From: an uncultured bacterium
Lineage (GTDB): Bacteria; Zixibacteria; MSB-5A5; GN15; FEB-12
NCBI GenBank assembly: GCA_965372795.1
Contig: CBDVDR010000002.1
Location: 1 to 64,000, forward strand
Direction: 5' to 3'
Length of the DNA stretch: 64,000 nt
Shown here: piece by piece, positions 19,721 through 44,818 of the stretch
Layout of the letters: each line of letters starts with the position of its first letter
Position numbering within the stretch: position 1 is the stretch's first letter
Program-made: the position numbers and the translations under genes
Notes under the pieces: model-generated
Seen by the model: only the letters and a program-made list of their open reading frames with translations
Told to the model about the DNA's origin: nothing
Databases searched by the model: none

Positions 19721-19781
19721 CAACGAGTCCTTCTAATATCTTCAAAAGATAGTATCCAACTACTGCAGATCAAAAGAAATT

Positions 19782-21588: not shown

Positions 21589-21592
21589 AATA

Positions 21593-24483: not shown

Positions 24484-27400
24484 TTAATAAGCTTTATTAC
24501 TATGAACTTTACAGGTCTCTGTCCAGCATCTATTAGCTCCGAAGTCCACTTGAGATAAAAATCCATTAACGAAGTTCTCAACCGGTTGTTGATTTCCGGT
24601 AGAGCCATCCTGCTCATTGTAAACCCATTTTCTATTCTGACCATGAATCCAAATTTTTATTGGTGGAGCTAATGAGGCAGTATTATCATAACCACCGGGC
24701 CAATCATCAGTTGGTAATCCAAGACCGGCTGTATTTGAATGATCCCACATATGGCATGAGAAACAACCGGGACCTTGCTTATGTTGACCTTGTGTACCCG
24801 GATGATCATCATAATCAGATGGAGCACCACTGCCTTCCCAATAAACAGAGGCCAAATGGCATACATCACACAAAGGTGTTCCGACAGTGCTGTTCGATAC
24901 TATCGTTGCTACTAACAAATGATCTGTATTAGAACCATGTGGACCTTCAGGATCAGTAGAAGTGTCAGAACGGTGACAATCAGAACAGTAATTTATCTTG
25001 GATGTTGCCCATGGTTCATTCATCGTTGTGCCATCACAGAATGGGTTATCACCGGCTCTTACAATTGCATGAGAAGAAGGATAATCAGGATTTATTTCTT
25101 CAGCCAGATTTCTTGAACCACCTGGAAGAGTTACATAATTCGAGTGACACTTCATACAAATCTGATATTCTTTCGTTGCCGGATCAACTTTTGTAAAACT
25201 TACCGGAGCTGCAAATACATTAGCATTATCTGTAGGAACCGGCACTGAAGGCCAGGTTGGTTCCACGCCCCAGACTCCCTTAAGTGCCCCCGATACCAAG
25301 TTAGACGAACCATCATGAGTACCTTCCTGAGCCGCATGAGGATTATGACAATCTTCACACTCAGCATGGCGGTTGCCATCACCAAGGTTTGCAGCCGTCT
25401 CATCAGCCGAATGTCGCCCACTATATGTGCCGGTTGGATGAGTATAAGTTCGACTGAAAGCAACACCAATATTGGTAGATGTACTTGTCATTGTCTGGAC
25501 TCCGTAAATATCACCCGATGAATGACAGGTCAGACAGAATTTTTCTTCAAGCGGATCCGCCGGCGAGGAAACAGTTGAGTCGCTCAATATTCTACGATAT
25601 GGGCTGTCATGTAACCCAAATTCATTAAATGATTTTGATAAATTATCATTGTGACATTTAACGCAGTTAGCATTAAACGAAGAACCATCACTAAATGTTG
25701 AAGACGGGGCATTATAGTTATGAGCACTTGAAGCATCAAAATCTGATTTTGGGACTATCATTGTTTCAGTCGTACCATCCGGTTGAGTATAACTTTTAGT
25801 TTGGGCAGATGTATGACATGACAAACAGATACCACCATCACCGGATGAGGTATAGTCAGAATTCAAAAACACTGAACCATCGCCTTGAGTTACCGAAGTA
25901 TTTGCAGAAATTCTGAGATTAGCAGCTCTTGTAGCACCAACTCCGGTGTTCACATCATCACGGAAAATATCATGATGAACGTGACACATCAAACAGGTTT
26001 TTGATGATAGGGTATAATCAGCATTGTCACTATTGATCTGGTGATGATATGTTGACGTACTTGAATTCATAGGGTTATAAATACTTGAGTGACATCCACA
26101 CCCGTCGCCACCGCTTGGCTCACCACCGGCCCCCGGGGAAAAACCATCAGCGTGAGTATGACAAGCTGCTCGACAATCTTCAACATCATGATTATGATCA
26201 CTAGGTTGTGTTCCATCATTTCTAAAATACTTAGTGGTTGTATGACATACTTCGCATATTTCAGTATAAACAGCGTTGGTTCTGTCTGCCATTGCCCCGT
26301 GAGTATCACTTCCGGCTGTCGGATCAGGAGAGTTAAACGGGTCGCCTTCTCCTAAAGTTTTAAATAGAACTGGCTGGTCACCATCATTTGGTGTTGCGAT
26401 TATTTCTCTAATAAGATAAATATTCGCCGATCCATGAGGTGTATGACAGGTAATACAGGTTTGGGTATTATGATTTGGAAGATTATGACAGGCTGAGTTC
26501 GGTCCGCCACAGTTCTCAGAATTGTTGGTGCGATGGAGTAAATTACCATCACCTAAAATTGCCGAACTTGTGACCGTTAATTCGTTACTGTTGGCAGTGT
26601 AGTCATCTGTTATTGTTCCACCTTTTTCATCATCAACAAAGAAATATAAATCATAGTCCCCGGTTGTTTGACCATCCGGTACTTTCCAAAGAACAGAGGC
26701 TTCATAAATACCGCCAGAGACATGGCGAACTCTAAGGTCTTGTTCTCCATGACGGGCATTGTTTACCAAAGTATATTCTGTCGAACCGGCATCTCGAACT
26801 TTCATTGTAATCAAAAATCCACCTTTACCTGGCAAATCTATATCGGTAAAGGTACCTTTGATCATTGTAAAATCTGAACCGATGCGGTTGATAGAATTTG
26901 GAATAGCTTCTGTATTATCAGCTGTCAATGTTGGACTGTTATTTGAGATAGCATCGTATATTTCTAATTCATCCCAGTTATTTTGATAACCGTCAAATGA
27001 AGTGTCGGTACCTTCAATAACATGGAAATATAAATCATACGGTCCAAGAGTTTGACCATCAGGAGGTTCCCAGTTAATCGCAGCTGTATAAACACCACCG
27101 CCCTGATCAACAATTGTTACTCCGCCCTGACCATGTCCCAAATTATCTGCCAGAACTATTTCTGTGTCAGTTGAGTCTTTAATTTTAAAAGTAACACTGA
27201 AAACAGAAACGGCAGGTGAATCGCCATCGGAAAAATTAGCTGAGATAGTTACCGGATTCGTTCCAACTCTTTCAACTGCAATTGGTGAAGAAAAAGTGCC
27301 ATCAGAGGGTACAACCGGGGGTAAATTATCACCCGCAGTTGTGATTGTAAGTTCATCAGAATTGTTTGCAAATATATCACCAACACTGTCTATACCGTCA

Positions 27401-30400
27401 TAGACTAAGAATTCCAAATCATAAGTACCGGTAATTGCATACTCCGGCGGGTCCCAATCAATCGAAGCAGTATATGAGTCACCACTACCGGCGGTTATGC
27501 TTAACCCGCCTTGACCATCTTGTAATCCGTCTGCAATCGTGATTAATTCCTGATCATATAGTGCCATGACTTTAAAGGTTATATAAAAACCATTCACACC
27601 GGGATCATCAGCATCGTTAAAGACTGTACTTAGGGTAGTTGTCGCTGCGCCTGCTCGTGCTAACGAGGTTGGACTAACAGATGTATTTCCTGAAGTAACA
27701 ATTGGTGTATTGTTTGACAACACTTCATTTATTAAAAGTTCATTAATGTTTAAATTATATCCATCAATAGCATTAGTAGTACCGGTACCGTCATCAACTT
27801 CAAGATACAGATCATAAAGTCCAAGTGTTTGGGCATCGTCCGGATTGTAGGTGTATTGGGCTGTGTAAGAACCTCCGCCATTATCAGTAACTGTTAGACC
27901 GCCGGCACCATGTTGAAGATTGTTAACCAGCGTTAATTCAGTTAAATCATTCGGTTCTCTGATTTTTATAGTTATAAAAAATGCCGTATTAGAATGTTCA
28001 TTGATATCTGAAAAATCACCGGAAATAGTAGTCGTAACAGCACCAATTCGGTTAACTGGTGTTATCGAAATCTGAGTTGAACTACTTGCTATTGTTGGAG
28101 CTGCTGCCGGTATAACTTCATTTAATGTCAATTCATCAGGGTTGGCAGCATAGCCGTCAATTGCATTATCAGTTCCATCTGAAACTTCAAAATATAAATC
28201 ATAAACTCCGATATTTTGAGCATCATCTGGATTATAAGTATAACTGGCAGTAAATGAACCACCACCATTATCAATTATAGTCAGTCCGCCACCGCCATTA
28301 GGCTGGTTGTTAACCAATGTGTATTCAGTCAAATCTGCTTCGCGAATTTTAAAATATACCAAGAAGGCACTTACGCCCGGCTGGTCTGTATCGGTGAAGT
28401 CAGTTGATATTACCGTAGTATTCGCCCCGTAAATATTTGCTGTTGTTGGTGATACTTGTGTCGCACTGGCTACTATTGATGGAACATTATTTGGAATAGT
28501 TTCTGTAATTGTTAACTCATCACTATTAGGAGAATATCCATCTATTACATTATCAGCACCATCGGAAACTTCAAAATATAAATCATAAAGACCGAGTGCT
28601 TGAGCATCGCCCGGGTCCCACGTATATGAAGCAGTATAACTGCCACCGGAATTATCTATTATAGTTAATCCGCCATTACCATTCGTGAGTCCGTTTACCA
28701 AAATAACTTCGGTAGAGTTGTCAGGCTCTTGTACTTTAAATGTAACCGTAAAGGATGATACGGCAGGCTCATCAATATCAGTAAAATCGGTTGAGATAGT
28801 AGTAGTGTTAACTCCAAAACGGTTTATAGATGCAGGGCTGACAGTCGTTGCATCTGATACAACCGTAGGTGCATTTTGTTGAAATATAGTTAATTCATTT
28901 GGATTGTTTGGGTAACCGTCAATTACATTATCAGTACCATCTGATACTTCGAAATATAAATCATAAACATCCAAAACCTGAGAGCCTGAAGGATCATAAG
29001 TATAATCGGCGCGATAATCTCCACTGCCCAAATCAGTAATCGTAAGTCCGCCACCGCCATTTGATTGATTATTTACAAGGAAATATTCAGTTGAATTAGT
29101 CTCTCTGATTTTGAAAGTTACAAAAAATGCTCCAACGCCGGGTACATCGGAATCTGAAAATACTGTTGAAATAACAGTTGTATTGGTACCAGCTCTGTTA
29201 ACTGTTGAAGGTGTTACCTGGGTAGCATTAGCAACAACCGTTGGGGGATTATTAGGCAGGACGTCAACGATTTCAAATTCATTATCATTAGATGCATAAT
29301 TGTCAATTACATTATCGGTTCCATCGGAAACTTCAAAATACATATCATACAATCCGGTTGTTTGAGCATCATCAGGGTTGTAAGTATAACTGGCTGTATA
29401 ATTGCCGCCTCCGCCTGATGTTATAGTCAGGCCGCCACCACCGTTAGATTGATTATTAACCAGAGTGTATTCGGTTGAAACATTATCACGGATTTTAAAT
29501 GTTACACTAAAAGCACCAACGCCGGGATCATCAACATCAAAAAAGTCTGTTGAAATAATTGTATTTTCTGACCCGAATCTATTTACTTGTCCTTTGCTTG
29601 ACGAGGTTGCACCGGCTGTAACTGTTGGAGCTGATTGAGTAGTTATTGTAAATTCATTATTATTATTTGTATAAGCATCGTTATCACTACCGCCTCCATC
29701 AGAGACTTCAAAATACAAATCATATAAACCTATTGTTTGAGCGTCACCCGGATCATAAGTGTAATCTGCTCGATAATCACCACCGGTCAAGTCAGTAATA
29801 GTTAATCCACCACCGCCATTCGGTTGATTATTAACCAGTGTATATTCTGCCTCAACATTATCTTTAATTTTGAAAGTGCAGTTAAAAGCGCCTACACCCG
29901 GGATATCCGTATCAGTAAACAGAGCTGAAATAACCGTTGTATTAACACCGATTCGATTAATCGATGCTGCTGAAACCTGGGTTGCACCTGCAACTACTGT
30001 TGGTGCAACACTAGGTACTGTATAAGTAATCGTTAATTCATTATCATTACTTGCATACCCATCAATCGCATTATCTGAACCATCTGTAACTTCAAAATAT
30101 AAATCATAAGCCCCAATGTTTTGAGCATCATCCGGATTATATGTATAATTGGCCGTATAAGATCCACCGCCGTTATCGACAATTGTTAAACCGCCGCCGC
30201 CGTTCGGCTGATTGTTGACCAGCGTATATTCGGTCAAGTCAGCTTCTTGGATTTTAAATGTTACATTAAAAGCACTCACACCCGGATCATCAGTATCAGT
30301 GAAATCAGTTGAAATAATAGTCGTGTTAGATCCGTAAGCATTAACCGATGCCGGTGCAACGGTAGTTGCACTTGCTACAACAGTTGGCACAGCATTGGGA

Positions 30401-33400
30401 ATTGTTTCAGAAATTGTAAGTTCATTGTCGTTACTGGCATAAGGGTCAATGCCATTATCGGTTCCATCTGAAACTTCAAAATATAAATCATACAATCCTT
30501 CAGTTTGAGCATCATCAGGATTATAAGTATAAGATGCCGTATAACTGCCACCACCACCATCGGAGATCGTTAAACCGCCAACGCCATTTTGTAGGTTATT
30601 TACTAATATTAATTCAGTGCTGTTATTTGGTTCACGAATTTTAAACGTACAGAAAAAGGCCGACACCCCCGGGATATCAGTATCGGTAAACTGAGTCGAG
30701 ATTGTAGTTGTATTAGCGCCATATCTGTTTACATCAACCGGATTAACCTGAGTTGCACCGCCGGTAACTGTTGGAAAATTATTTGATAGTTGGTCAACAA
30801 CTTCAAGTTCATCAAGGTTGTCAGTAGAATCATCAATAGATGTAAAACTCCCGTCATTGACTTCAAAGTGCAAATCATATAATCCAATAGTTTCATTGTT
30901 TGCCGGGTTCCAGGTATACTCGGCGCGGTAACTTCCACCACCATAATCTGTAATTGTTAAACCGCCGCCACCATGAGTTTCGTTCGATACAAGAACAACA
31001 TCAGTAGAATTATCAGGTTCTCTCACAATCATTGTAACAGTAAATGCAGAAACAGCATGCTGGTTAGCATCTGTAAAGTCCGTATAGATTGTTGTCGTAG
31101 TTGTTTGAGTCCCCTTACGTGCTACCGGTGAAACCGTAACCGCTGTTGCACCTGTAACAATAACTGGTGCCACAGCAGGTGCGGTATAGGTAATCGTTAA
31201 TTCATTATCGTTACTTGCATATCCGTCAATTGCATTATCAGCTCCATCAAAAACTTCACAATATAAATCATAATCGTCGATATTTTGCGCATCATCAGGA
31301 TTATATGTGTAATTAGCAGTATAAGAACCACCGCCATTATCAATTATTGTTAAACCGCCCCCACCATTTGATTCGTTATTAACTAATGTATATTCAGTCA
31401 AATCGGCTTCACGGATTTTAAATGACACACTAAAAGCACCCACACCCGGCTCGTCAACATCAGAAAAATCAGCTGAAATTACTGTTGTGTTTGAACCAAA
31501 AGCATTCACAGATGCCGGTGAAACAGTAGTTGCACTTGCGCTGATTACGGGGGGATCATTCAAAGCTGTAACGGTAAAGGTTGCTGCATCTTCATCCCAG
31601 AGAGAACCCGGATCAGTGGCACGAAATGTTATAGTTTCGTTTCCATTCCAATTTATATCCGGTATTGTAATTGTGGCGACTCTACTGGTAATATCAACAG
31701 TAAGTTCAGTGTTGCCTGTATATGACCAGATCATTTCAGTCTCAGTGTTATCAACATCAGAAACATAGTCATCTAAAGTTATCGTTGTAAATGAAGAACC
31801 TTCTGGAACAGATTGGTTTGGTATATCAGTTACAATCGGCGGATCGTTTTGAGCAGTGACTGTAAATGTTGCCGCATCTTCATCCCATAATGATCCCGGG
31901 TCGGTTGCCCGGAATGTTATTGTTTCGTTTCCATTCCAATTTATATCAGGAATTGTAATTGTGGCGACTCTACTGGTTATATCAACCGTTAGTTCAGTGT
32001 TTCCGGTATAAGACCAGGTCATCTCAGCATCGGAGTTGTCAACATCAGAGACATAGTCATCTAATGTAATTGTTGTAAATGAAGAACCTTCAGGCACTGA
32101 TTGGTTAGGTATATTAGTTACAATCGGCGGATCGTTTTGAGCTGTAACAGTAAAAGTTGCTGGATCTTCATCCCAGAGTGATCCCGGATCGGTGGCACGA
32201 AAAGTAATCGTTTCGTTTCCATTCCAATCTGTATCAGGTATTGTAATTGTTGCCACTCTACCGGTTATGTCTACTGTCAGCTCAGTGTTACCACTGTAAC
32301 TCCAGGTCATATCAGCATCAATGTTGTCAACATCTGAAACATAGTCATCCAAATTTATGGTAGTAAATGATGACCCCTCAGGAACAGACTGGTTGGGAAT
32401 ATTAGTAACTATCGGTGGATCATTTTGAATTGTTACAGTAAATGTTGCCGGGTCTTCATCCCAAAGCGAGCCGGGGTCGGTTGCCCGGAAAGTAATTACT
32501 TCTACGCCACTCCATTCAATATCAGGAATAGTAATAGTGGCAACCCGACTGGTTATATCAACCGTTAGTTCAGTGTTTCCGGTATAAGACCAGGTCATCT
32601 CAGCATCGGAGTTGTCAACATCTGATACATAGTCATCTAATGTTATCGTAGTAAATGTCTGACCTTCCAAAATTGTCTGATTCGGAATATTAGTTACAAC
32701 CGGCGGATCGTTTTCTGCAGTAACAGTAAAGGTTGCTGCATCTTCATCCCATAGTGAACCCGGGTCAGTGGCACGAAAAGTAATAGTTTCGTTTCCATTC
32801 CAATCTGTATCCGGTATTGTAATTGTTGCCACTCTGCTGGTAATATCAACGGTAAGTTCAGTATTGCCCGTATAAGTCCAGTTCATCTCAGCATCAGTAT
32901 GGTTTGGATCAGAAACATAGTTATCTAAATTTATGGTCGTGAAACTTGAACCTTCAGCAATTGACTGGTTCGGAATATCAGTAACAACGGGTGGATCATT
33001 GGCGACAACCGGCTGTGCATCAAGAACAACATTATCCCAGTTTATTTGGATTTGTGCAGAGTTATTATTTCCTGTTTGTACATTAGCATAAAGACGAATT
33101 TCATATATTCCGTTTTCATCAAAAAAACTGCTTACATCAAGTAGACTAACTGTACCTGTTATTGGAACAGCAGGTGCTGATGGAGTAGAAGTCTCTGACC
33201 AAATTGTTACTTCTGCACTACTTGGTTTGACAATTCGTACTTCTATGTCAGTTGCATCTTGTGCAATACTTGCGAATGATATTTTTTGCCACCATAAAGA
33301 TAAGAAGACATCATCGGTACTATTTATTACTGTAGTAATACTTTGAGCATCATACCATTCAAATGGAGTTTTCTTCCCTGTTCCTGATAAATCTTTCAAA

Positions 33401-33600
33401 CTAGGAGACGGGTTGCCATAGGATCCATCAGAACTCATTACTGTTGAACCTGTAATATCTGTATGAACCCAATCTGTGGTGCCACTGTTAAAATCACCGT
33501 TGGAAATTACATCTGCTGCATTAACAGTTGTAACTCCAACTAAAACAGAAACTAAGAACAGTGCTAATAGTACTTTAATATTTTTAAACGACTTCATCAT
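24484..33600 (-). CDS. Giant (3038 aa) secreted multiheme cytochrome c with CBM-like N-domain and 18 Ig-like repeats
   Basis: Signal peptide; jelly-roll-like domain (ISNGDF...WDNVVL); 5 repeats of 96 aa; 13 repeats of ~128 aa; C-terminal ~690 aa with 11 CxxCH plus CX6CH, CX3CH, CXCH and CX4CKVH. Confidence 0.92.
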   Translation of the reverse strand: MMKSFKNIKVLLALFLVSVLVGVTTVNAADVISNGDFNSGTTDWVHTDITGSTVMSSDGSYGNPSPSLKDLSGTGKKTPFEWYDAQSITTVINSTDDVFLSLWWQKISFASIAQDATDIEVRIVKPSSAEVTIWSETSTPSAPAVPITGTVSLLDVSSFFDENGIYEIRLYANVQTGNNNSAQIQINWDNVVLDAQPVVANDPPVVTDIPNQSIAEGSSFTTINLDNYVSDPNHTDAEMNWTYTGNTELTVDITSRVATITIPDTDWNGNETITFRATDPGSLWDEDAATFTVTAENDPPVVTNIPNQTILEGQTFTTITLDDYVSDVDNSDAEMTWSYTGNTELTVDITSRVATITIPDIEWSGVEVITFRATDPGSLWDEDPATFTVTIQNDPPIVTNIPNQSVPEGSSFTTINLDDYVSDVDNIDADMTWSYSGNTELTVDITGRVATITIPDTDWNGNETITFRATDPGSLWDEDPATFTVTAQNDPPIVTNIPNQSVPEGSSFTTITLDDYVSDVDNSDAEMTWSYTGNTELTVDITSRVATITIPDINWNGNETITFRATDPGSLWDEDAATFTVTAQNDPPIVTDIPNQSVPEGSSFTTITLDDYVSDVDNTETEMIWSYTGNTELTVDITSRVATITIPDINWNGNETITFRATDPGSLWDEDAATFTVTALNDPPVISASATTVSPASVNAFGSNTTVISADFSDVDEPGVGAFSVSFKIREADLTEYTLVNNESNGGGGLTIIDNGGGSYTANYTYNPDDAQNIDDYDLYCEVFDGADNAIDGYASNDNELTITYTAPAVAPVIVTGATAVTVSPVARKGTQTTTTTIYTDFTDANQHAVSAFTVTMIVREPDNSTDVVLVSNETHGGGGLTITDYGGGSYRAEYTWNPANNETIGLYDLHFEVNDGSFTSIDDSTDNLDELEVVDQLSNNFPTVTGGATQVNPVDVNRYGANTTTISTQFTDTDIPGVSAFFCTFKIREPNNSTELILVNNLQNGVGGLTISDGGGGSYTASYTYNPDDAQTEGLYDLYFEVSDGTDNGIDPYASNDNELTISETIPNAVPTVVASATTVAPASVNAYGSNTTIISTDFTDTDDPGVSAFNVTFKIQEADLTEYTLVNNQPNGGGGLTIVDNGGGSYTANYTYNPDDAQNIGAYDLYFEVTDGSDNAIDGYASNDNELTITYTVPSVAPTVVAGATQVSAASINRIGVNTTVISALFTDTDIPGVGAFNCTFKIKDNVEAEYTLVNNQPNGGGGLTITDLTGGDYRADYTYDPGDAQTIGLYDLYFEVSDGGGSDNDAYTNNNNEFTITTQSAPTVTAGATSSSKGQVNRFGSENTIISTDFFDVDDPGVGAFSVTFKIRDNVSTEYTLVNNQSNGGGGLTITSGGGGNYTASYTYNPDDAQTTGLYDMYFEVSDGTDNVIDNYASNDNEFEIVDVLPNNPPTVVANATQVTPSTVNRAGTNTTVISTVFSDSDVPGVGAFFVTFKIRETNSTEYFLVNNQSNGGGGLTITDLGSGDYRADYTYDPSGSQVLDVYDLYFEVSDGTDNVIDGYPNNPNELTIFQQNAPTVVSDATTVSPASINRFGVNTTTISTDFTDIDEPAVSSFTVTFKVQEPDNSTEVILVNGLTNGNGGLTIIDNSGGSYTASYTWDPGDAQALGLYDLYFEVSDGADNVIDGYSPNSDELTITETIPNNVPSIVASATQVSPTTANIYGANTTVISTDFTDTDQPGVSAFLVYFKIREADLTEYTLVNNQPNGGGGLTIIDNGGGSFTASYTYNPDDAQNIGVYDLYFEVSDGTDNAIDGYAANPDELTLNEVIPAAAPTIASSSTQISITPVNRIGAVTTTISGDFSDINEHSNTAFFITIKIREPNDLTELTLVNNLQHGAGGLTVTDNGGGSYTAQYTYNPDDAQTLGLYDLYLEVDDGTGTTNAIDGYNLNINELLINEVLSNNTPIVTSGNTSVSPTSLARAGAATTTLSTVFNDADDPGVNGFYITFKVMALYDQELITIADGLQDGQGGLSITAGSGDSYTASIDWDPPEYAITGTYDLEFLVYDGIDSVGDIFANNSDELTITTAGDNLPPVVPSDGTFSSPIAVERVGTNPVTISANFSDGDSPAVSVFSVTFKIKDSTDTEIVLADNLGHGQGGVTIVDQGGGVYTAAINWEPPDGQTLGPYDLYFHVIEGTDTSFDGYQNNWDELEIYDAISNNSPTLTADNTEAIPNSINRIGSDFTMIKGTFTDIDLPGKGGFLITMKVRDAGSTEYTLVNNARHGEQDLRVRHVSGGIYEASVLWKVPDGQTTGDYDLYFFVDDEKGGTITDDYTANSNELTVTSSAILGDGNLLHRTNNSENCGGPNSACHNLPNHNTQTCITCHTPHGSANIYLIREIIATPNDGDQPVLFKTLGEGDPFNSPDPTAGSDTHGAMADRTNAVYTEICEVCHTTTKYFRNDGTQPSDHNHDVEDCRAACHTHADGFSPGAGGEPSGGDGCGCHSSIYNPMNSSTSTYHHQINSDNADYTLSSKTCLMCHVHHDIFRDDVNTGVGATRAANLRISANTSVTQGDGSVFLNSDYTSSGDGGICLSCHTSAQTKSYTQPDGTTETMIVPKSDFDASSAHNYNAPSSTFSDGSSFNANCVKCHNDNLSKSFNEFGLHDSPYRRILSDSTVSSPADPLEEKFCLTCHSSGDIYGVQTMTSTSTNIGVAFSRTYTHPTGTYSGRHSADETAANLGDGNRHAECEDCHNPHAAQEGTHDGSSNLVSGALKGVWGVEPTWPSVPVPTDNANVFAAPVSFTKVDPATKEYQICMKCHSNYVTLPGGSRNLAEEINPDYPSSHAIVRAGDNPFCDGTTMNEPWATSKINYCSDCHRSDTSTDPEGPHGSNTDHLLVATIVSNSTVGTPLCDVCHLASVYWEGSGAPSDYDDHPGTQGQHKQGPGCFSCHMWDHSNTAGLGLPTDDWPGGYDNTASLAPPIKIWIHGQNRKWVYNEQDGSTGNQQPVENFVNGFLSQVDFGANRCWTETCKVHSNKAY
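26563..31560 (-). repeat. 13 tandem ~128-aa beta-sandwich-like repeats in the giant cytochrome
   Basis: Consensus PTV...T.VSP..VNR.G.NTT.IS..F.D.D.PGV.AF.VTFKIRE...TE.TLVNN..NGGGGLTI.D.GGG.Y.A.YTYNPDDAQ..G.YDLYFEVSDG.DN.ID.Y..N..ELTI, counted 13 times. Confidence 0.9.
31561..33000 (-). repeat. 5 tandem 288-bp (96-aa) cadherin-like/tandem-95-type repeats
   Basis: NDPP.VT.IPNQS..EG..FTTI.LD.YVSD.DN...EM.W.YTGNTELTVDITSRVATITIPD..W.G.E.ITFRATDPGSLWDED.ATFTVTA five times; 1440 nt = 5 x 288. Confidence 0.92.
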
Positions 33601-33618: not shown

Positions 33619-34317
33619 TTAGTCAGTTGTTCCGGAATTAGAATCTTTATTATGTACCCCATGGCAACTGGTGCATCGAACTTCATCACCAGCCCCTAAA
33701 ATAAAATCATTAGTTGTATTACCATCTGAAGGCTGCGGATTACCATCAACATCCAAAGGCGGATTATGATATGTCTCTGTTGCCGGAAGAGCTTGACCAA
33801 TTGGATGAGATAAATCTGAGCCTGTATAAGTTTTAACCGAGGACATATTACGAGGAGCGTGGCAATCAAGGCAAAGCTGATCGGCAGAGTTATCCATTCG
33901 TAAAAAAGGAGGATTCGAATTATCATGGGGATTATGGCAGGTGCCACAGGTAACTCGTCCTTCAACAGTTAAATGAGCAAGCAAAGTCGTACTGGTCGGG
34001 GTAGTAGCACCCAAAGTTGCATTGGCGGTGTCAACATCCCAGGCATGAGAAGTTCCGGATACTCCCGGTTGAGCTTTCAAAGATGATGACAAATATTTTG
34101 ACATCCCGGACCAGCCACCCGGAGTATGACAGGATATACAAAGGGTTGAGACCAGCGAGTCAGTGGAATTTATTAAAATATCACCCAAAGTAGAATGAGT
34201 AATATGACATTGATCACAGTTGATGCTGTTTGTTGTACCATGGGGGTCATCTAAGGCATTTGCCCGGACAACCAACAAAAGCAATAAAACTATGAGTATC
34301 CTTGATACTTTCATCAT
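33619..34317 (-). CDS. Pentaheme cytochrome c
   Basis: Signal peptide; CDQCH, CISCH, CGTCH, CLDCH, CTSCH. Confidence 0.92.
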   Translation of the reverse strand: MMKVSRILIVLLLLLVVRANALDDPHGTTNSINCDQCHITHSTLGDILINSTDSLVSTLCISCHTPGGWSGMSKYLSSSLKAQPGVSGTSHAWDVDTANATLGATTPTSTTLLAHLTVEGRVTCGTCHNPHDNSNPPFLRMDNSADQLCLDCHAPRNMSSVKTYTGSDLSHPIGQALPATETYHNPPLDVDGNPQPSDGNTTNDFILGAGDEVRCTSCHGVHNKDSNSGTTD

Positions 34318-34325: not shown

Positions 34326-35861
34326 CTATTTAATTAAAACCATTTTCTTGGACTGAACAAATTCTTCGGTTGATATCCGGTAAAAATAGATACCGGTTGC
34401 TACCGAGGCACCACTTTTATTGGTTCCGTCCCAGTTTATAAAATGATTACCCGCCGGCAATACTTTATCATTCAAATCAATTATCTTTTGACCTAATAAA
34501 TTGAATACTTCAAGCTTAACCTGTTGTTGATCAGGAATTGAAAACGAAATCGTTGTTGTAGGATTAAAAGGATTAGGGTAATTCTGGTCAAGTCTGAATT
34601 CATAGGGGAGGGTAGTCGTTTTGAAATTTCTCATCGCCGACCATTGTCCGGTTGAATCTTTAAACCTAAGTCTGGTACGCCATTCATAATAAGAATCATT
34701 ATCGAGGGTATCGTTAATTAACCACTCAGAAGTAAAAGTAAGATCAGTTGTTATCGTGTCAAATACAACCTCAGGCTTTACAGCTGATACTTCTAAAACA
34801 GCATCATCGCTTTCTGTAGTCTCCTGAAAAAATAATTGGAAATCAAAACCTAAAACAGGTTCTGTGTCTGCTGTTGTTTCAGTAGATGCCACTAATTTAA
34901 CATCAGTGACTCCAATTGTATCAGATGGATTTGGGTATACTTGGATTGCCATTATCGAATTTGTGCTTGTTACAAAATCTGTAAGATAAAAGGCTTTTAT
35001 ATTGGCACCCTCGGTTGAGACTACGTAAAGCAAACCGTTTTCATCAATTGCCAGACCGGATGGAATATTAAAATTAATCCGACTGCCATCTATTAAATCA
35101 ATGTTTCCCATAAAATTGCCATTTGGATCATATACCACAATCTTATTCTGGTATCGGTCTGCTACAAAAACCGCGCCGGCAGGACTAAATAAAATATCTC
35201 CACCACGGGTGATCTGTCCTTCAGATGCTCCGAATGAACCGAAACTCTTCTGGAATTCACTTTTTGAATTTATTATCCAGACCTTTGATGTTATCTGGTC
35301 GAATATGTAGAAATTATTAGTCGCAGGATCAATTGTAAAACTTGAAGCAAAATTCGGTGGCTCGTTTTTCATGTCTAAAAGCTGGATCGTACCTTGAAAC
35401 TCGCCGGATAAACTGAACTTTACAATTTTGTTAGTTCCAGCATCTAAGATATATAGATGATCATCACTTTTAACAATATCAACCGGATTTTTAAAAGTAT
35501 AACTATTAAAAAAGAAATCGTATTCTTCAATCTGGGTGAAATCTATCGCAGTAATCTGTCGTTTCTCTCTATCACAATACAAATATAAAAGATTGGTAAC
35601 TTCTGTGAGTGAATTCGCTTCACCGGTGAAATTTACCTGTCGTTCAATCACACCGTTTGTGGAGAAAATTTTAATCTGTCTTGAAAATGGCTCAAGGACT
35701 GTTATCTTGTCATTGGAAACTGTAATAGATGATGGCGCAAACAGGGAATTGTCTATTGTCCCGGCAAGCTTGACATCAAAAGCAATTGTCCCAAGTCCTG
35801 TAATAGCAACGAGTATTAGTGCTTTAAATAGGATGTTAATATTGATTTTCATATTACTCAA
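34326..35861 (-). CDS. NHL beta-propeller protein with FN3-like region and QNYPNPFN/FlgD C-terminal domain
   Basis: NHL blades (FGSFGASEGQ, PSGLAIDENGLLYV); YEWRTRL...GQWS; RLDQNYPNPFNP...KKMVLIK. Confidence 0.85.
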   Translation of the reverse strand: MSNMKININILFKALILVAITGLGTIAFDVKLAGTIDNSLFAPSSITVSNDKITVLEPFSRQIKIFSTNGVIERQVNFTGEANSLTEVTNLLYLYCDREKRQITAIDFTQIEEYDFFFNSYTFKNPVDIVKSDDHLYILDAGTNKIVKFSLSGEFQGTIQLLDMKNEPPNFASSFTIDPATNNFYIFDQITSKVWIINSKSEFQKSFGSFGASEGQITRGGDILFSPAGAVFVADRYQNKIVVYDPNGNFMGNIDLIDGSRINFNIPSGLAIDENGLLYVVSTEGANIKAFYLTDFVTSTNSIMAIQVYPNPSDTIGVTDVKLVASTETTADTEPVLGFDFQLFFQETTESDDAVLEVSAVKPEVVFDTITTDLTFTSEWLINDTLDNDSYYEWRTRLRFKDSTGQWSAMRNFKTTTLPYEFRLDQNYPNPFNPTTTISFSIPDQQQVKLEVFNLLGQKIIDLNDKVLPAGNHFINWDGTNKSGASVATGIYFYRISTEEFVQSKKMVLIK

Positions 35862-38219: not shown

Positions 38220-38235
38220 GAAATCTACATATTTC

Positions 38236-39254: not shown

Positions 39255-40319
39255 CTATTTTACGTATTTCCCCGGGCTATGTGAATAATTATGACAGGTT
39301 AAATAACATTCACCCGCATTTGTACCGGTTGAGTTAAATTGAATTTTACGAGTGACATCATCCAAAGAAACAGCTTCGGGATTAAAATTTATTAAATACT
39401 TATTTTTCTCAGAACTATGAGAAGCATGACAGGTAAAGCAAGAGGTTCCTTTGCGGTTTTTTATCGGATCACCTACTATATGTTCTTTATGGAGCGGAAA
39501 ACTTGCATTTGAAAGGATACTTGTTCTGCTGTGACAGGAATAACAAAACTCATAAGCATAATTATTTTCGTTGTTATATACGTCCGTATCATAGTTTCCG
39601 GTTAGTAAATGCTTATGTTTGGAACCATGAGGTCCTTTGGGACCATCTTTATCATCATTACTGTGGCAATCGGAGCATTTCATGCTATTGTCAAAGTCTA
39701 AAGATAACTTAAGACTGGCTGATTTATTGTTTGAAATAGCTGTTGTAACCGGATGCTGAGACTGGTTTCTTAACGCAAAAACTTGTGAATAGTTTTTTGA
39801 TCTGCTCTTGATATTAACACTTGTGCCGTGGCATTTTAAACAAACCTCAAATTCCTTTGATGATTTTGTAATATATTGATTGGACAAGCTATAACCTTGA
39901 ACATCATAAGTTTTCTCACCAGTTGTAATTCGTTGATGAGGATTATGACAATCAACACATTCGGCATGATTAATCATTGATGAAGAAAGCCCTGGTAATC
40001 TTTCAGAAGATGAATGGCCGGAACCTCTTTTAACCGGATGGCGATAAAGTTTATTGAATTCCTTTTCCAAATCTGCAAGATCAGCTTGTTGAGCCAATTT
40101 CCCCGATGATTTCATTGAGGCGCGTTTACTGTCTGAACCATGACATTGGTAGCAAGCTTTCTCTTCCGGATGAGTTAACATCGGCTCACCCTTTAACCCA
40201 TGACCAACATGACAGGAACCGCACTCTTCGGGAAGGAGGTAATTGTCAACATGTGCCAATAAACTGCCTATTGATAAAAAGGCGAGGGTGAAAGTTAATA
40301 TGTATATTATTTTTTTCAT
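39255..40319 (-). CDS. Multiheme cytochrome c (7 CxxCH + 1 CX3CH)
   Basis: Signal peptide; CGSCH, CYQCH, CVDCH, CLKCH, CSDCH, CYSCH, CFTCH, CYLTCH. Confidence 0.92.
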   Translation of the reverse strand: MKKIIYILTFTLAFLSIGSLLAHVDNYLLPEECGSCHVGHGLKGEPMLTHPEEKACYQCHGSDSKRASMKSSGKLAQQADLADLEKEFNKLYRHPVKRGSGHSSSERLPGLSSSMINHAECVDCHNPHQRITTGEKTYDVQGYSLSNQYITKSSKEFEVCLKCHGTSVNIKSRSKNYSQVFALRNQSQHPVTTAISNNKSASLKLSLDFDNSMKCSDCHSNDDKDGPKGPHGSKHKHLLTGNYDTDVYNNENNYAYEFCYSCHSRTSILSNASFPLHKEHIVGDPIKNRKGTSCFTCHASHSSEKNKYLINFNPEAVSLDDVTRKIQFNSTGTNAGECYLTCHNYSHSPGKYVK

Positions 40320-40327
40320 CTCTTTTC

Positions 40328-40990
40328 CTAAAACTTATGGCATGTTTTACAGACTTCACTGAATGTTGCTTTTCGCCAAAAAGGATATTTTGCTGATTTG
40401 GAATCATCATGAGGGTCGTGGCAGGAGGTGCACTGGACATAACCGTTATAGTCAACCCCAACTGATTTATTACCACTCGGTAATGGCCACTTAAGATGAC
40501 TGCTCGATAAAGCAACCTTCTGATCAAACTTAACTGACACTGGATGAGTCCCGGTCAGATCAGTTCCGATATGACCTTTACTTGTTACAGGGATTTCACC
40601 TGAGGAACCGACGTTATTCATAGGTATTGAAGTTGCTCGGTTGTGGATTGCACCAACAGCAATAGTGCCATCATGACAGGAAAGACACAATTTTGTTGAA
40701 CCATTCGGCTGTTCGGCTCTGCTTTTCATGGTTGATCGTTTATAGGTTTGGAATTTCCCCGTAGTTGTTGTTTTGTGATTCCAGAGAGGACCTTCTGTAG
40801 ATGCGTTATGACTGCTGTGGCAGAAAATACAAATACGAGTCTCGGTTGGTGACTTTATATCACCTTTGCCGGAGACTGATAAATTGTGTCGACTATCTTT
40901 AATTGCACCACTACCTTCAGAACTATTAGATGTCTCTGACACCAATAGGAATGAAAAAAGAAGGAGTAATATAACTAACTTAATCCTCAT
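40328..40990 (-). CDS. OmcE-like tetraheme cytochrome c
   Basis: IKDSRHNLS...ICIFCHSSHNA...PLWN...LCLSCHDG...IGTDLTGTHPV...CTSCHDPHD...PF.R...CKTCH. This follows the motif layout of Geobacter OmcE as I recall it. Confidence 0.85.
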   Translation of the reverse strand: MRIKLVILLLLFSFLLVSETSNSSEGSGAIKDSRHNLSVSGKGDIKSPTETRICIFCHSSHNASTEGPLWNHKTTTTGKFQTYKRSTMKSRAEQPNGSTKLCLSCHDGTIAVGAIHNRATSIPMNNVGSSGEIPVTSKGHIGTDLTGTHPVSVKFDQKVALSSSHLKWPLPSGNKSVGVDYNGYVQCTSCHDPHDDSKSAKYPFWRKATFSEVCKTCHKF

Positions 40991-41999
40991 TGGGACCTCC
41001 TAAAAAATGAAGGATTTGGATTCGGTCATTATATGTATCAGCAATATATACTGTATCATTATTTATTGCAAGACCAGATGGGGAATAAAACTGTCCGGCT
41101 TCATTTCCAACTGAACCGACAACAAGTAAAAAGCGACCGGTAGAATCAAATATTTGCATATTGTCAAATAGATTGTCTACTACATAGATATTACCTTCGC
41201 TATCAGTAGCAACACCTTTGACCCGTGCAAAAGTTCCGGGACCATCACCTTCTTCACCAAATGCTGAAATAAAATTTCCGTCTGAATCAAATCTCTTAAT
41301 TTTATAATTTAATGCATCGTTTACTAATATATTATTGTCCCGAGCAGTAGCAACATAAGTAGGGAAGTGGAATCGGTCTTCAATTGCTAAATCGTTTGAC
41401 ACCACCCGTATCAATTTACCATCAAAATCATAAATTTTTAAATCATGATCGCCCGTATCAATTATATAAATAAGTTTCTTATCTGAATTGGCTGATATCC
41501 CGGTAGGTCTTGATAACCCTTCTGTTATAAACGGTTTGACTTTGCCATTCTCAAATTTATAAACTGCTTTATTCTCACTGTCTGTTATAAATATAACATC
41601 GTCATTACCTTGACATAAACAGACCGGAAAACTAAAAGGACTATTCTTGTCATAATATTTCTTGTAACTGTTATCAGATAATTTAATTTCAATCAAATAA
41701 GGAATTCCCTGACAGGTAAGATACATCTTGTCCTTGACTACAATTACATCATACGGCAAACTAATTATATCTTTTTCGCTGCGACCACTAAGAAAGCTTT
41801 TAACTTTTGAAAAAAAACCGCTTCCTACTCGAAGGTCTTTACAAGCAATCTCTCCGACATATTCTATACGAGGCTCATCAGGATGAGGTGGCCAATACAA
41901 CTTCTGTGCAATTACACTCACTGATAGCATTATTATAACAAAAAGAGTCATTGTAAATCGTATGTTAATTAACTTATTCATATGTTTATTATATACCAA
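40980..41999 (-). CDS. NHL-repeat beta-propeller protein
   Basis: WPPHPDEPRIEYV; FGEEGDGPGTFARVKGVATDSEGNIYVVD; GQFYSPSGLAI. True start may be the Met at 41981. Confidence 0.9.
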   Translation of the reverse strand: MVYNKHMNKLINIRFTMTLFVIIMLSVSVIAQKLYWPPHPDEPRIEYVGEIACKDLRVGSGFFSKVKSFLSGRSEKDIISLPYDVIVVKDKMYLTCQGIPYLIEIKLSDNSYKKYYDKNSPFSFPVCLCQGNDDVIFITDSENKAVYKFENGKVKPFITEGLSRPTGISANSDKKLIYIIDTGDHDLKIYDFDGKLIRVVSNDLAIEDRFHFPTYVATARDNNILVNDALNYKIKRFDSDGNFISAFGEEGDGPGTFARVKGVATDSEGNIYVVDNLFDNMQIFDSTGRFLLVVGSVGNEAGQFYSPSGLAINNDTVYIADTYNDRIQILHFLGGPNED

Positions 42000-44130
42000 A
42001 TTTCCTTGTTATACTTATAGATAATTCATAAAACTTATAAGTGTCAAGAATGAGTTCATCTGTTGAAAAAATATGAGATATTGTTAAATCAATTTGGTTA
42101 TATCTATAAGAAATCTCTGATTCTGTTTTAAAAGAAGCTTGTCTCGGCATTCCTTCCAAATCTCTATACTGTTTAATTATTTCTGTTGAGAATGGAAATT
42201 TTATATAAGGAATATAAGTGTCCAGCTTAAAAAGAATACCTGTCGTTTTACTCCCTTTGGCATTTGCCAAAGAGAAATTAGTCGAAAATTCAACGTCTTT
42301 AAATTGACTTGAATTATAATTTATAGATATTGTATTTGAATATTCAGTCGGTGTAACTTTTGTTACTAGTACAGATTGTTGAGTAATAGTATCTCGTTCT
42401 TCCGTATCAAAATCACCTGTGAATCTCCAGGTATGTGAAGTAGATAAAGAAATAGTGTGTTTTTCCGAAAGATCTTTTCGGAAAAGAAAATCCCATAATA
42501 CTTGTGAGCTGGTTTTTGTACTATTATTTTCAGTAGTTTTTGTAAATACATGACCTAATTTTGTGGATACTTCACCCAGTAACCGATTATCTGTTTGGCT
42601 GATCTCAAAAGATGAGTTCATCGTTAATCCTTCAGATTCACTTTTGAGAGTGTCGCCAATCTTTTCTCTGGAATCTATTTTTATAGAACTCATCGGAACG
42701 AATTTTAATCTCCCAGACGATAATTCCATTCGATTTCTTAATTCATAACTTTTATTTGTCGCTTCATCTCTACCAAACCCTGTTTTGTTCTGTTGAGATA
42801 ATTCGCCATTAAAAGATATATGGTGTTTATATCTTTCTGAAGGTAATGCAAGTTTCGCAATATATTTTGTGTTGTCAGTTTCAATTTTAATTCCATCAGT
42901 AGTTTCTAATACATCCAGTTTATAATCATGGCTGACACTTCCGATAAGACCTTTTCTTTGAATGAAATTTAGGGTTGTTAGGTTTTTCGAATTATCGGTT
43001 ATTAGTTTATCAATACCTCCGGTAATACTTTCTCTTGCAGTTTTTTCTGAGTTAATCACTATATCAAATTTCCTGGAAATTTGATATAATAGTGAATTTT
43101 TAAAACCATCTGATAATTCTTTTAAATGGGTGCTTGCACTGAAAAGGTCGATGTGGGAAAAATTTGTTTTAATTTTTAATTTTTTAGTTAAATAACTAAA
43201 ATCAATCATAGCTTCAGTATTATCATTGATAATATCATTTTTAACAGGGAACTTCTCAACATCAATATTTATTACATAATTTTTCTCATGATTCAAATTG
43301 ACACTTATTGAACTCTGCATATAGTTATGTAATGGAATCACATCAATAAAATGACTGCCTGAATCAAAAGTAATCGTAAAGGTAAACTCAGGTGGGATTA
43401 TCTCATTGAATGTACCCGAAATTATTCTTACTGAATCATCTTTTATTTTATTGTTAAATATTACCGATACAGTATTGGTAAAAATATCACCTGGAAGCTC
43501 TAATGATGATATAATTATTTTTCGATCTTCATCAAAATCATAATCATATGAATTATCGGTCTTTTGGTTATTGAATGAGGCATCAAGCGTTGCTCCACTG
43601 AATAATTTACTCGAAAAATACGTACCGTACTTCTCTTCATTGATTCTTCTCTTTTGTAAAATTGCAAGACCGGGGGTGAGAAGCTCAGTCGAAGATCGCT
43701 CTGATTCATTAAACTTTAGAGAGACATCTTTCATTTTGATATAGAAAAAACTCAATGGATATGATCGTTTTGGGAAAAAGATGATATTACCGCTAAAATT
43801 ATTTAATTCAGGCGATGAATATGAACCCAATTGTAAAGTGTTGGTTTTCATTGAAGTAAAAAAACCTTTTAACATTGCCGAAAGAAAATAATTGGCAAAA
43901 TTCTCTGTCTTTATACTCCCGCCATTAGCAAAACTTACATAATGGTTTGAAATAAATCTGGTCGCATTATTGGGAGAGTAGCTGTTGGCATTGGACTCAC
44001 TGGATGAATTAATTGCATGAAGATCAACACCGAGCGATCCCTTTATTCGATATTGGGCTGATATGTTTGCACTTAAAAGCAATAGAACAAATGAAATTGT
44101 CCAAAAATATGTTGAATTATTTACTCTCAA
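41989..44130 (-). CDS. Predicted large outer-membrane beta-barrel protein
   Basis: Signal peptide, 713 aa of alternating amphipathic beta-strands, C-terminal YELSISITRKFGI. Sits between the two OmcE-like modules. Confidence 0.65.
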   Translation of the reverse strand: MRVNNSTYFWTISFVLLLLSANISAQYRIKGSLGVDLHAINSSSESNANSYSPNNATRFISNHYVSFANGGSIKTENFANYFLSAMLKGFFTSMKTNTLQLGSYSSPELNNFSGNIIFFPKRSYPLSFFYIKMKDVSLKFNESERSSTELLTPGLAILQKRRINEEKYGTYFSSKLFSGATLDASFNNQKTDNSYDYDFDEDRKIIISSLELPGDIFTNTVSVIFNNKIKDDSVRIISGTFNEIIPPEFTFTITFDSGSHFIDVIPLHNYMQSSISVNLNHEKNYVINIDVEKFPVKNDIINDNTEAMIDFSYLTKKLKIKTNFSHIDLFSASTHLKELSDGFKNSLLYQISRKFDIVINSEKTARESITGGIDKLITDNSKNLTTLNFIQRKGLIGSVSHDYKLDVLETTDGIKIETDNTKYIAKLALPSERYKHHISFNGELSQQNKTGFGRDEATNKSYELRNRMELSSGRLKFVPMSSIKIDSREKIGDTLKSESEGLTMNSSFEISQTDNRLLGEVSTKLGHVFTKTTENNSTKTSSQVLWDFLFRKDLSEKHTISLSTSHTWRFTGDFDTEERDTITQQSVLVTKVTPTEYSNTISINYNSSQFKDVEFSTNFSLANAKGSKTTGILFKLDTYIPYIKFPFSTEIIKQYRDLEGMPRQASFKTESEISYRYNQIDLTISHIFSTDELILDTYKFYELSISITRKFGI

Positions 44131-44139
44131 AAGAACTCT

Positions 44140-44808
44140 TTATTTGGTGTGACACCGTCCGCATAAAGCAGAGTTAGCATTTGATTCAATTAAAAAAGCC
44201 CCATAAGTATTATCATGAGGATCATGACAAGAATTACACTCAACATAAATACCCTCTGATAGAAGTTTATCAGGGTATAAAGCTGGATCTCCGGTTTTGG
44301 CGACGAAATCATCATCTTTAGTATGATCATAGATTATTCCAACAGGGTGGTCATCTTGTAAATTCGTTCCAACATAAGAATCCGAAGCTGCTGTCAACTT
44401 GCCGGCACCATCAAGGGCTGAGCCACCGGGAGTTCCATAAGAACCCGCACCTTGAGGTCCGGGTACATTATTTAGTGAATTAATCGCAATTGTTCCATCA
44501 TGACAAGTCAAACAAACCAAAGAACCGTTATTTGGCTGCAAGGTTTGAGACATGTCTATCGAAGGAGAATCATACATATCATAAGTTTGACCAGAATTTG
44601 TATGATTCCACAATGGGGCAGGGTCTGTCACATCGGCATTATGAGCAGTATGACAGAAGGAGCAAACCCGTCGAGTACCATAGAAAAATGCGTTTGGACT
44701 ATAAGTTGCAGATGTGAAATTATGCTTGGTCTCTCTGACACCAGCCATTGAAATTCCACTGCCAATAACTATACTTGCTATTATTAGTAAGATTATAAGT
44801 TTTTTCAT
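44140..44808 (-). CDS. OmcE-like tetraheme cytochrome c
   Basis: VRETKHNF...VCSFCHTAHNA...PLWN...MYDSPS...SLVCLTCHDG...VGTNLQDDHPV...VECNSCHDPHDN...FL...SALCGRCH. Confidence 0.88.
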   Translation of the reverse strand: MKKLIILLIIASIVIGSGISMAGVRETKHNFTSATYSPNAFFYGTRRVCSFCHTAHNADVTDPAPLWNHTNSGQTYDMYDSPSIDMSQTLQPNNGSLVCLTCHDGTIAINSLNNVPGPQGAGSYGTPGGSALDGAGKLTAASDSYVGTNLQDDHPVGIIYDHTKDDDFVAKTGDPALYPDKLLSEGIYVECNSCHDPHDNTYGAFLIESNANSALCGRCHTK

Positions 44809-44818
44809 AATATATTCC

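Follow-up and report, generated by a model that had tools for sequence, protein, structure and literature searches.

Haem wires, conductive pili or shuttles are the usual explanation for how cells reach electron partners that are solid or distant. Among the closest described systems, the Uet cluster of Candidatus Tenderia electrophaga is reported in the order UetH/I (two NHL proteins), the 11-haem UetJ and CcsAB (bioRxiv 10.1101/2022.05.06.490989). The same preprint predicts UetJ to be an extracellular 11-haem cytochrome, and Uet is also reported in a Gallionellaceae pangenome (PMC10734462). NHL propellers interleaved with putative outer-surface multihaem cytochromes are described for DFE_0448-0451 and DFE_0461-0465 of D. 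ferrophilus (PMC9769857), and Gmet_0556-0558 of G. metallireducens is described as an NHL/multihaem cluster (PMC10989804; Gmet_0556 also in bioRxiv 10.1101/2022.05.06.490989). The MHC-B and MHC-C proteins of anaerobic methanotrophic (ANME) archaea are reported to carry, fused to a multihaem C-terminal part, a large N-terminal region that is haem-free and of carbohydrate-binding or adhesin type (Chadwick et al, 2022; PMC9012536), and this extension was proposed to recognise the cell wall of the partner (PMC9012536). In turn, the giant adhesin SiiE of Salmonella is described as an immunoglobulin (Ig)-repeat protein stiffened by Ca2+ (PMC5466336). Here, we analyse a gene at 24484..33600 on the minus strand of a 64,000-nucleotide stretch (hereafter the window) of contig CBDVDR010000002.1, from an uncultured bacterium of the Zixibacteria (assembly GCA_965372795.1). 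It encodes a 3038-aa protein in which a haem-free rod, making up about 71% of the chain, lies between a domain confidently modelled with the fold of a carbohydrate-binding module (CBM) and a C-terminal multihaem module.

The gene is a single intact open reading frame (ORF), whose frame stays open throughout its 3038 codons, and the mature protein of ~321 kDa is strongly acidic. Its domain order is a signal peptide, a 172-aa N-domain, five A repeats of 96 aa, thirteen B repeats of ~128 aa and a 691-aa haem module. Residues 3 to ~30 are the sole strongly hydrophobic stretch of the protein (Kyte-Doolittle, 14 of 14 windows above 1.6), and from this hydropathy and the reading of the sequence, residues 1-28 (33517..33600, minus strand) are a predicted signal peptide with cleavage between VNA and ADV. 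This segment contains no cysteine and no lipobox. As the earliest cysteine of the whole protein is residue 781, the protein has no lipobox at all. By family scan and motif search, neither a Por_Secre_tail match nor an N[YF]PNPF motif, the marks of cargo of the type IX secretion system (T9SS), was found in it; both the motif and the sorting domain occur in two other proteins of the window. An identity as T9SS cargo or as a lipoprotein was thus ruled out, the signals being absent.

All Cys/His haem-type sites are confined to residues 2364-3033, and upstream of residue 2364 just three isolated cysteines occur. The haem module (residues 2348-3038; 24487..26559, minus strand) contains 11 CXXCH motifs, a CX3CH (2476), a CX6CH (2364), a CXCH (2501) and a C-terminal CX4C-x2-H (3025). 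The 11 CXXCH and the CX3CH lie within residues 2382-2950, with the first CXXCH at 2382, and such a series behind a signal peptide marks the protein as a predicted multihaem c-type cytochrome. The CX3CH at 2476 reads CRAACH and is replaced by CXXCH in most relatives, and the ORFs of related loci hold 12 CXXCH in eight of eleven cases and 13 in the other three, so that the module is probably at least a twelve-haem unit. The three odd motifs were compared in an alignment of 30 sequences. CGGPNSACH (the CX6CH, residues 2364-2372) is retained across the close family and aligns with a canonical C-TSCH in P0007. CGCH (the CXCH, residues 2501-2504) is aligned to a CXXCH in P0008, P0024, P0025 and the two Geobacter relatives, and CWTETCKVH (the CX4C-x2-H, residues 3025-3033) to a CX3CH in P0023. 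Because these motifs are conserved and aligned to CXXCH or CX3CH in some relatives, the module may hold 12 to 15 haems, if the odd motifs carry haem.

In the Pfam scan, the haem module matched PF22113 (MtrC/MtrF haem domain II/IV) with 45 bits when the whole protein was searched and 50.7 bits when the module was searched alone (cut-off 30), and it also matched Paired_CXXCH_1. It is single-copy in the genome and 49-66% identical over 99-100% of its length in 20 relatives. Structure prediction with AlphaFold2 (AF2) of the last two B repeats together with the module, from an 11-row alignment, gave a mean predicted local distance difference test score (pLDDT) of 36.3, and the haem part (~22-35) was unusable. 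A single-sequence search of the PDB gave 0 matches to the module at E<=1, and the best profile match, to a Rieske protein at E 0.006, was judged to be due to chance. These searches bear on a filament model, in which the haem modules would polymerise as in OmcS, OmcE and OmcZ, with the stalks radiating outward. Polymerisation of UetJ was proposed as a possibility by the Uet authors (bioRxiv 10.1101/2022.05.06.490989), and the module studied here is likewise predicted to be extracellular and has no anchor. Against such a filament, we found no evidence of self-association and no sequence relation to the solved filament cytochromes in either search, and an appendage of 230 kDa per subunit would crowd the fibre. 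We give this arrangement little chance.

The stalk (residues 201-2347) is built from two kinds of repeat. An NDPP motif at residues 201, 297, 393, 489, 585 and 681 delimits, by its spacing, five 96-aa A repeats (residues 201-680; 31561..33000, minus strand), which are 78-84% identical to the first copy. They are bacterial Ig-like domains of the Big_9 type: this Pfam family was matched in four stretches with 28.4 bits and by a single repeat with 25.5 bits (cut-off 23.6), and the NCBIfam model tandem-95 reached 39.7 bits, under its cut-off of 90. No cadherin family matched the A repeats in the Pfam scan. A YD[LM]x motif with 13 occurrences and a period of 125-131 aa likewise delimits thirteen B repeats at residues 681-2347, which are 40-80% identical to repeat 4 and share 14 invariant columns. 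Repeats 1-10 (residues 681-1963; 27712..31560, minus strand) are the portion whose copy number varies among relatives. Repeats 11-13 (residues 1964-2347; 26560..27711, minus strand) are diverged, and three B repeats persist even in the shortest relatives. A B-repeat profile search of the genome (3.35 Mb, 98.65% complete) returned exactly these 13 sites and no others. No Pfam family covers the B repeat (best matches Invasin_D3, E 0.005, and DUF4625, E 0.074, both below cut-off). Neither repeat profile found a significant sequence relative in the PDB, and no relation between A and B repeats was detectable by profile-profile comparison (probability 1.4%).

The AF2 model described above covers two of the thirteen B repeats, B12 and B13, each of which was modelled with 7-9 strands (block pLDDT 52-81). 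The top structural matches of this model were all Ig-like, namely B7-H6 (Z 6.7), FlgD (Z 6.5) and ICAM-1 (Z 6.1); the Ig-like matches span Z 5.3-6.7 and none reaches Z 8. With moderate confidence, the models therefore suggest that B12 and B13 are Ig-like sandwiches. The stalk is rich in aspartate and asparagine (together 18.7%) and carries 316 acidic residues against 54 basic ones, and conserved Asp, Asn and Glu occupy invariant columns in the alignments of both repeats. The acidic composition and the conserved Asp and Asn suggest that Ca2+ might bind to and stiffen the stalk, whose length, by arithmetic from the size of a domain, would be 60-80 nm. A role of the stalk as a haem wire was rejected, because it contains no haem motif.

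The excess of acidic over basic residues would also suit a different device, by which an iron oxidiser would handle minerals: the stalk would bind Fe(III) or nucleate oxyhydroxides away from the cell surface, near the cytochrome that produces the Fe(III). Loci with the labels Sideroxydans, Thiobacillus and Gallionellaceae do contain related 11-haem cytochromes. However, no metal-binding motif was identified in the stalk, and the CBM-like tip would be left without a role, so this is hardly a probable explanation. As for the repeat number itself, the repetitive gene could be a product of misassembly, either a chimera or an array with the wrong number of copies. The copies have diverged at the DNA level (75-85% identity among A and 61-79% among B copies), the longest exact repeat is 75 nt and the frame is uninterrupted. 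Moreover, the same single-ORF architecture is found in twenty relatives from other assemblies, and for the same protein cluster 2 contigs are on record, of up to 995,107 bases. All of this makes an artefact very improbable.

The tip of the protein, the N-domain (residues 29-200; 33001..33516, minus strand), has no Pfam family, with no match at E<=10 and hence none to a Pfam CBM family. It was folded alone with AF2, using an alignment that included 22 relatives. A longer alignment, which set residues 29-940 against full-length relatives, had been rejected for folding, as MAFFT placed the B repeats of the relatives onto the A repeats. The resulting all-beta model has ten strands, a pLDDT of 94.3 and a predicted template modelling score (pTM) of 0.89. 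Its structure search gave 130 chains at Z>=8, headed by CBMs, with CBM16 (2zew_A; Z 15.1, root-mean-square deviation (rmsd) 2.4 Å, 135 of 146 residues aligned) and a hyaluronan-binding module (4d0q_A; Z 15.1) followed by the lectin-like end of the phage CBA120 tailspike 4 (Z 14.3), CBM61 (Z 14.2) and CBM4 and CBM22 (Z 12.5-13.5). The CBM matches together span Z 12.5-15.1 over 133-144 aligned residues, with sequence identities of 8-17%. Foldseek agreed, with CBM16 first at E 8.3e-7 among 159 matches at E<=0.001. A language-model search (Atlas) offered CBM_4_9, present on 21% of one cluster, as a lead only, and the best PDB match by profile had an E value of 1.2, which is no sequence relative. 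We thus assign a CBM-type beta-jelly-roll fold to the N-domain with high confidence, on the basis of the model. In sequence, the tip evolves fast: its identity among relatives is 28-42% in 20 of the 22 rows, with P0013 (75%) and P0047 (58%) as exceptions. When metagenomes were scanned for loci with the N-domain, 1 locus was recovered.

Most of the architecture had already been read from the letters of the window. The original prediction listed a signal peptide, a CBM-like N-domain, 13 Asp/Asn-rich repeats of ~128 aa, haems limited to the C-terminal ~690 aa and the absence of both a lipobox and a QNYPNPFN sorting domain, and our results agree with it on each of these, at the level of the fold in the case of the N-domain. 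Domain-wise AlphaFold and Foldseek analysis, which it had put forward as a check, gave the clear answer described above for the tip. The prediction also depended on the repeats forming tandem beta-sandwiches, and the models of two B repeats lend this moderate support. The rod length of 70-80 nm that it gave would follow by arithmetic from ~4 nm per domain. Its five cadherin-like repeats exist as five 96-aa units; they match Big_9, and no cadherin family matched them.

To place the protein among its relatives, a family search over proteins of 1670-5317 aa was carried out, which yielded 114 matches at E<=0.001 among 7154 candidates. On contigs representing one genome per species, 14 loci were at least 53% identical. 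Half of these carry a Zixibacteria label, and the other seven bear six labels (Deferrimicrobium, Bacteroidota, Kerfeldbacteria, Acidobacteriota, Ignavibacteria and plain 'bacterium'), although labels of metagenome-assembled genomes are possibly unreliable. Profiles of the three stalk and tip domains were then run over 32 family proteins. The N-domain was present in all 20 proteins with 6-13 B repeats, and the number of B repeats ranged from 3 to 17 or more, the upper value coming from P0047, which is incomplete at both ends. At the other extreme, the complete proteins P0247, P0253 and P0255 retain the three module-proximal B repeats only, and all three are missing the N-domain. Together with the protein at L015:8339-12166, they represent short members in which the haem module follows a signal peptide and 3-5 B repeats, with no tip. 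The A repeats are limited, among these 32, to the window protein, P0013, P0023 and the fragment P0246. Two further relatives (P0024 and P0025), 40% identical in the module, have the haem module as well as the N-domain, which occurs twice in P0025, but no B repeats, and their stalks contain other Ig-type Pfam families. The order of tip, spacer and head is therefore retained even when the spacer has been swapped for unrelated domains, and the combination of tip, spacer and cytochrome is present on a second stalk type.

The haem module is found widely, with 1318 representatives at E<=0.001 and 209 at E<=1e-30, and is mostly C-terminal in larger proteins. Stand-alone proteins of ~670 aa with 11 CXXCH, 30-38% identical to part of the module of the window protein, come from loci that bear the labels Sideroxydans, Thiobacillus, Gallionellaceae and Ignavibacteriales. 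In both loci that were scanned (Sideroxydans, L043, and Ignavibacteriales, L036), the gene order is NHL propeller, ~670-aa 11-haem cytochrome, ResB and CcsA, in agreement with the uet order as published. Relatives from named, cultured organisms are the G. metallireducens cytochrome ABB30819.1 (1284 aa) and a 769-aa protein of G. argillaceus, each with 33% identity across 84% of the module. The B repeat, for its part, is not limited to cytochromes. Thirteen further matches were examined, two of which (P0353 and P0355) proved to be members of the cytochrome family. In five others (P0360, P0361, P0363, P0368 and P0369), no CXXCH is present, and 3-6 B repeats separate an N-terminal domain from a hydrophobic segment at the C-terminus. 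Since this segment would be an anchor, the C-terminus is expected to be the cell-proximal end in these proteins. P0365 is haem-free with other domains, and five more haem-free proteins are apparent fragments or of uncertain completeness. As P0361 is labelled Thermoplasmata, the B repeat appears to be a stalk module common to different domains of life.

Taken together, the retained order of tip, spacer and head, the variable spacer, the fast-evolving tip, the conserved head and the C-terminally anchored haem-free proteins lead us to place the haem module near the cell and the tip distally. In the reading that we favour, and hold tentatively at a little short of an even chance, the haem module would sit at the cell surface, docked to the cytochromes and propellers of its gene cluster, and the distal lectin-like tip on its non-conducting stalk would act as a tether to a glycan-bearing target. 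The protein would then be the outermost cytochrome of an electron-transfer cluster of porin, NHL propellers and multihaem cytochromes. Sec would export it, the adjacent ResB/CcsA pair would attach its haems, and the 12-haem module would be placed at the surface together with the three conserved Ig-like domains that precede it, where it would exchange electrons with the small cytochromes of the cluster. Some propellers of the cluster carry a T9SS sorting domain or a lipobox-like N-terminus and could hold such a surface complex. The acidic haem-free stalk, with its five Big_9-type and ten variable B-type Ig-like domains, would keep the tip at a distance from the cell. Stalk and tip would serve as an adhesin or tether that holds the cell, and hence the electron conduit, to polysaccharide of the matrix, to a partner cell or to a mineral with an organic coat, and would not conduct. 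That a rod joins a binding domain to a redox domain had been proposed in the original prediction, and a lectin/CBM-fold end, a multihaem end and a haem-free array of probable beta-sandwich type between them are what we find; binding by the tip is suggested by its fold. Likewise, the absence of haem motifs, the range of lengths from 3 to 17 or more repeats and the use of the same repeat as a stalk in anchored haem-free proteins fit the proposed spacer or tether.

The same parts can be arranged the other way round, with the tip anchored in the cell's own polysaccharide (capsule, lipopolysaccharide or biofilm matrix) and the stalk displaying the 12-haem head outward. Many such heads could form a redox-active layer, with electrons hopping between tethered heads and to minerals. 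A CBM-type tip would suit this arrangement, as would a haem end that has neither a membrane nor a lipid anchor, and a stalk of 3 to 17 or more repeats would tune its reach. Matrix cytochromes anchored on exopolysaccharide are known from Geobacter. The pattern of conservation argues in the opposite direction, however: the haem module and its three adjoining repeats are conserved and the tip evolves fast, as expected if a conserved docking partner is found at the haem end. In addition, the short forms without a tip must still be held somewhere, and the haem-free B-repeat proteins are anchored by their C-terminus. We regard the reversed orientation as possible, though clearly less probable than a haem module docked at the cell. 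A further idea, which we consider unlikely, is a length-tunable system of tethered cytochromes. With tips in the matrix or in the envelope of a partner, heads of 12-15 haems on stiff acidic rods would make a redox-active brush tens of nm thick, in which electrons would move by collisions between heads and stalk length would set the distance of exchange from the membrane, a design that would have arisen on at least two unrelated stalk types.

The proposed docking of the haem module to neighbouring components at the cell surface draws on the surroundings of the gene. It is the third gene of a tightly packed minus-strand run that starts with a 511-aa NHL propeller carrying a C-terminal T9SS sorting domain (34326..35861), followed by a 232-aa five-haem cytochrome (33619..34317) that ends 18 nt upstream of the 3038-aa gene and is 67-74% identical in relatives. 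Downstream, on the same strand, family scans and synteny identified a ResB-like protein (23389-24465) and a CcsA/CcsB-type protein (22571-23392), the partners of system II cytochrome c maturation. By family scans, these are followed by an NHL propeller with a lipobox-like N-terminus (21593-22567), a 137-aa hydrophobic protein (21226-21639) and a BchE-like B12 radical S-adenosylmethionine (SAM) enzyme (19782-21239). The upstream half of the conserved cluster (39255..45895, minus strand) comprises, all on the minus strand, a 7-8-haem cytochrome (39255-40319), a 4-haem cytochrome (40328-40990), an NHL propeller (40980-41999), a 713-aa exported protein of no Pfam or NCBIfam family (41989-44130), a second 4-haem cytochrome (44140-44808) and another NHL propeller (44819-45895). 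The wider upstream region encodes cytochromes with 4 to 17 haems and additional NHL propellers.

Nine related loci were compared for synteny. ResB directly follows the large cytochrome gene in eight of them, and the ninth stops at the gene. Seven loci extend to the upstream side, and in five of these the five-haem gene is the immediate upstream neighbour. Within the cluster, conservation is highest for the gene of the BchE-like radical SAM enzyme, present in seven of nine loci with 64-72% identity. It matches TIGR02026 with E 1e-120 and 404 bits, below the cut-off of 481, and the presence of a tetrapyrrole-type enzyme within a cytochrome cluster suggests that it may be involved in haem modification. 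The ResB/CcsA pair is one of several paralogues in the genome, since further CcsA-type loci are found on two other contigs (C4 and C9). As for the 713-aa protein, its position is kept among related loci at just 21-23% identity, and a weak language-model lead (Atlas, rank 27, score 0.92) to clusters of porin or outer-membrane-protein beta-barrels makes it a candidate for the porin of the conduit.

Within the window, electron-transfer genes span about 20-56 kb. A segment on the plus strand (36382-39137), encoding a PEGA-domain protein, a 188-aa protein and a 197-aa five-haem cytochrome, interrupts the cluster. Its homologues sit after the radical SAM gene in related loci, which indicates a local rearrangement. 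A second block (45865-55671, minus strand) encodes large cytochromes with 10, 9, 17 and 13 CXXCH, as well as an fn3+NHL protein, a thioredoxin-TPR protein and a TPR protein. The cytochrome cluster is followed immediately downstream by hydrogenase maturation genes (13880-19723, minus strand; HypE-like, HypD, HypF, HypB and HypA).

Several points weigh against a surface-docked haem module with a distal tether. A rigid rod of 60-80 nm would hold a bound target far from the haem module at its base. Neither a T9SS domain nor a lipobox, the outer-membrane crossing signals that were looked for, is present in the 3038-aa protein, so that its surface exposure is an assumption. The N-domain matches no Pfam CBM family, and a CBM fold is by itself no proof of glycan binding. 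The haem module, whose model is unusable (pLDDT ~22-35), has no solved relative by sequence, and the porin is a candidate put forward from a language-model lead. Finally, deletion of cytochromes in NHL-containing clusters of D. ferrophilus is reported to have left Fe(III) oxide reduction unimpaired (PMC9769857), which leaves the role of such NHL/cytochrome clusters unsettled. The missing crossing signal could also mean that the protein remains periplasmic, or that it is not respiratory at all, being for example an adhesin with a redox-sensing or storage domain. Yet its gene lies in the middle of a cluster of porin, propeller and cytochrome genes. Eighteen tandem Ig-like domains and two end domains also far exceed the width of the periplasm. 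We consider a periplasmic or non-respiratory protein improbable.

If the haem module is indeed docked at the cell and the stalk reaches outward, the terminal cytochrome itself would provide attachment and spacing, an idea that can be tested. The length of the rod is plainly under evolutionary adjustment, and the family offers a natural length series with 3, 6-13 and 17 or more repeats, in which the short members that have no tip are natural 'stalk-less' controls. The analysis also defines two domain families with no Pfam match, the tip and the 128-aa B repeat, and raises biochemical questions about the CX6CH and CXCH variants of the haem motif and about the BchE-like radical SAM enzyme that is conserved among the cytochrome genes.

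Among described systems, the locus is close to the Uet cluster in gene order, with an NHL propeller (34326-35861), a five-haem gene, the 3038-aa gene, ResB and CcsA in succession in the window. As in the published account of Uet, NHL propellers, a large cytochrome with 11-12 motifs and a system II pair occur together, and a candidate beta-barrel protein and small multihaem cytochromes lie upstream of them. The likeness to UetJ is drawn from gene order, motif count and the stand-alone 11-haem relatives, which are unnamed, rather than from the sequence of UetJ. The window protein differs in its ~2150 haem-free stalk residues and its lectin-like tip, whereas UetJ is described without any other domain. 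The accessory genes described for Uet are three trihaem c7 cytochromes, the cupredoxin UetF, the peptidyl-prolyl isomerase UetB and the beta-barrel UetC. In Pfam scans of the cluster genes, we found no cupredoxin, isomerase or trihaem set, and the small cytochromes here have 4, 5 and 7-8 haems. The clusters of D. ferrophilus and G. metallireducens, as described, also resemble this one in their NHL propellers interleaved with cytochromes, but their cytochromes are reported without a long repeat stalk. With MtrC and OmcA, the window protein shares PF22113, matched above cut-off, and both would be terminal extracellular cytochromes. It differs from them in having no lipobox and 12-15 motifs instead of 10. 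With regard to their four-domain staggered-cross fold, the module was modelled with a pLDDT of ~22-35 and has no PDB match by sequence.

The stalk and the tip have likenesses of their own. Long tandem arrays of acidic Ig-like domains on an exported protein are a feature of adhesins of the SiiE, Big_9 and tandem-95 type, as far as these are described, and the A repeats match Big_9. In contrast to these, the window protein has a redox module at one end and a B repeat that is in no Pfam family. CBM16, CBM4, CBM22, CBM61 and the hyaluronan-binding module have the same fold as the tip, but are only 8-17% identical to it. In the literature on multihaem cytochromes of Zixibacteria, as far as the sources cover it (including PMC3903129, PMC8478452 and PMC9213671), we found no paper describing the 3038-aa protein, nor did we find one combining a multihaem cytochrome with cadherin-like domains.

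The nearest parallel in design is provided by MHC-B and MHC-C of ANME archaea, which, by their description (PMC9012536), share with the window protein a dedicated cytochrome-maturation paralogue next to the gene and haem motifs with extra residues between the cysteines. Those proteins are described as archaeal, with 20-86 haems and with pectin-lyase-like or peptidase-M6-like and S-layer domains. The window protein, compared with that description, is bacterial, has 12-15 haem motifs and combines a rod of 18 tandem Ig-like repeats with a tip of predicted CBM fold. Because a giant cytochrome with a haem-free, adhesin-like extension has thus already been published (PMC9012536), the protein does not represent a new category. 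What is new is a bacterial rod of 18 tandem Ig-like domains with a confidently modelled CBM-fold tip, a 128-aa repeat outside Pfam, a series of stalk lengths and a second stalk type.

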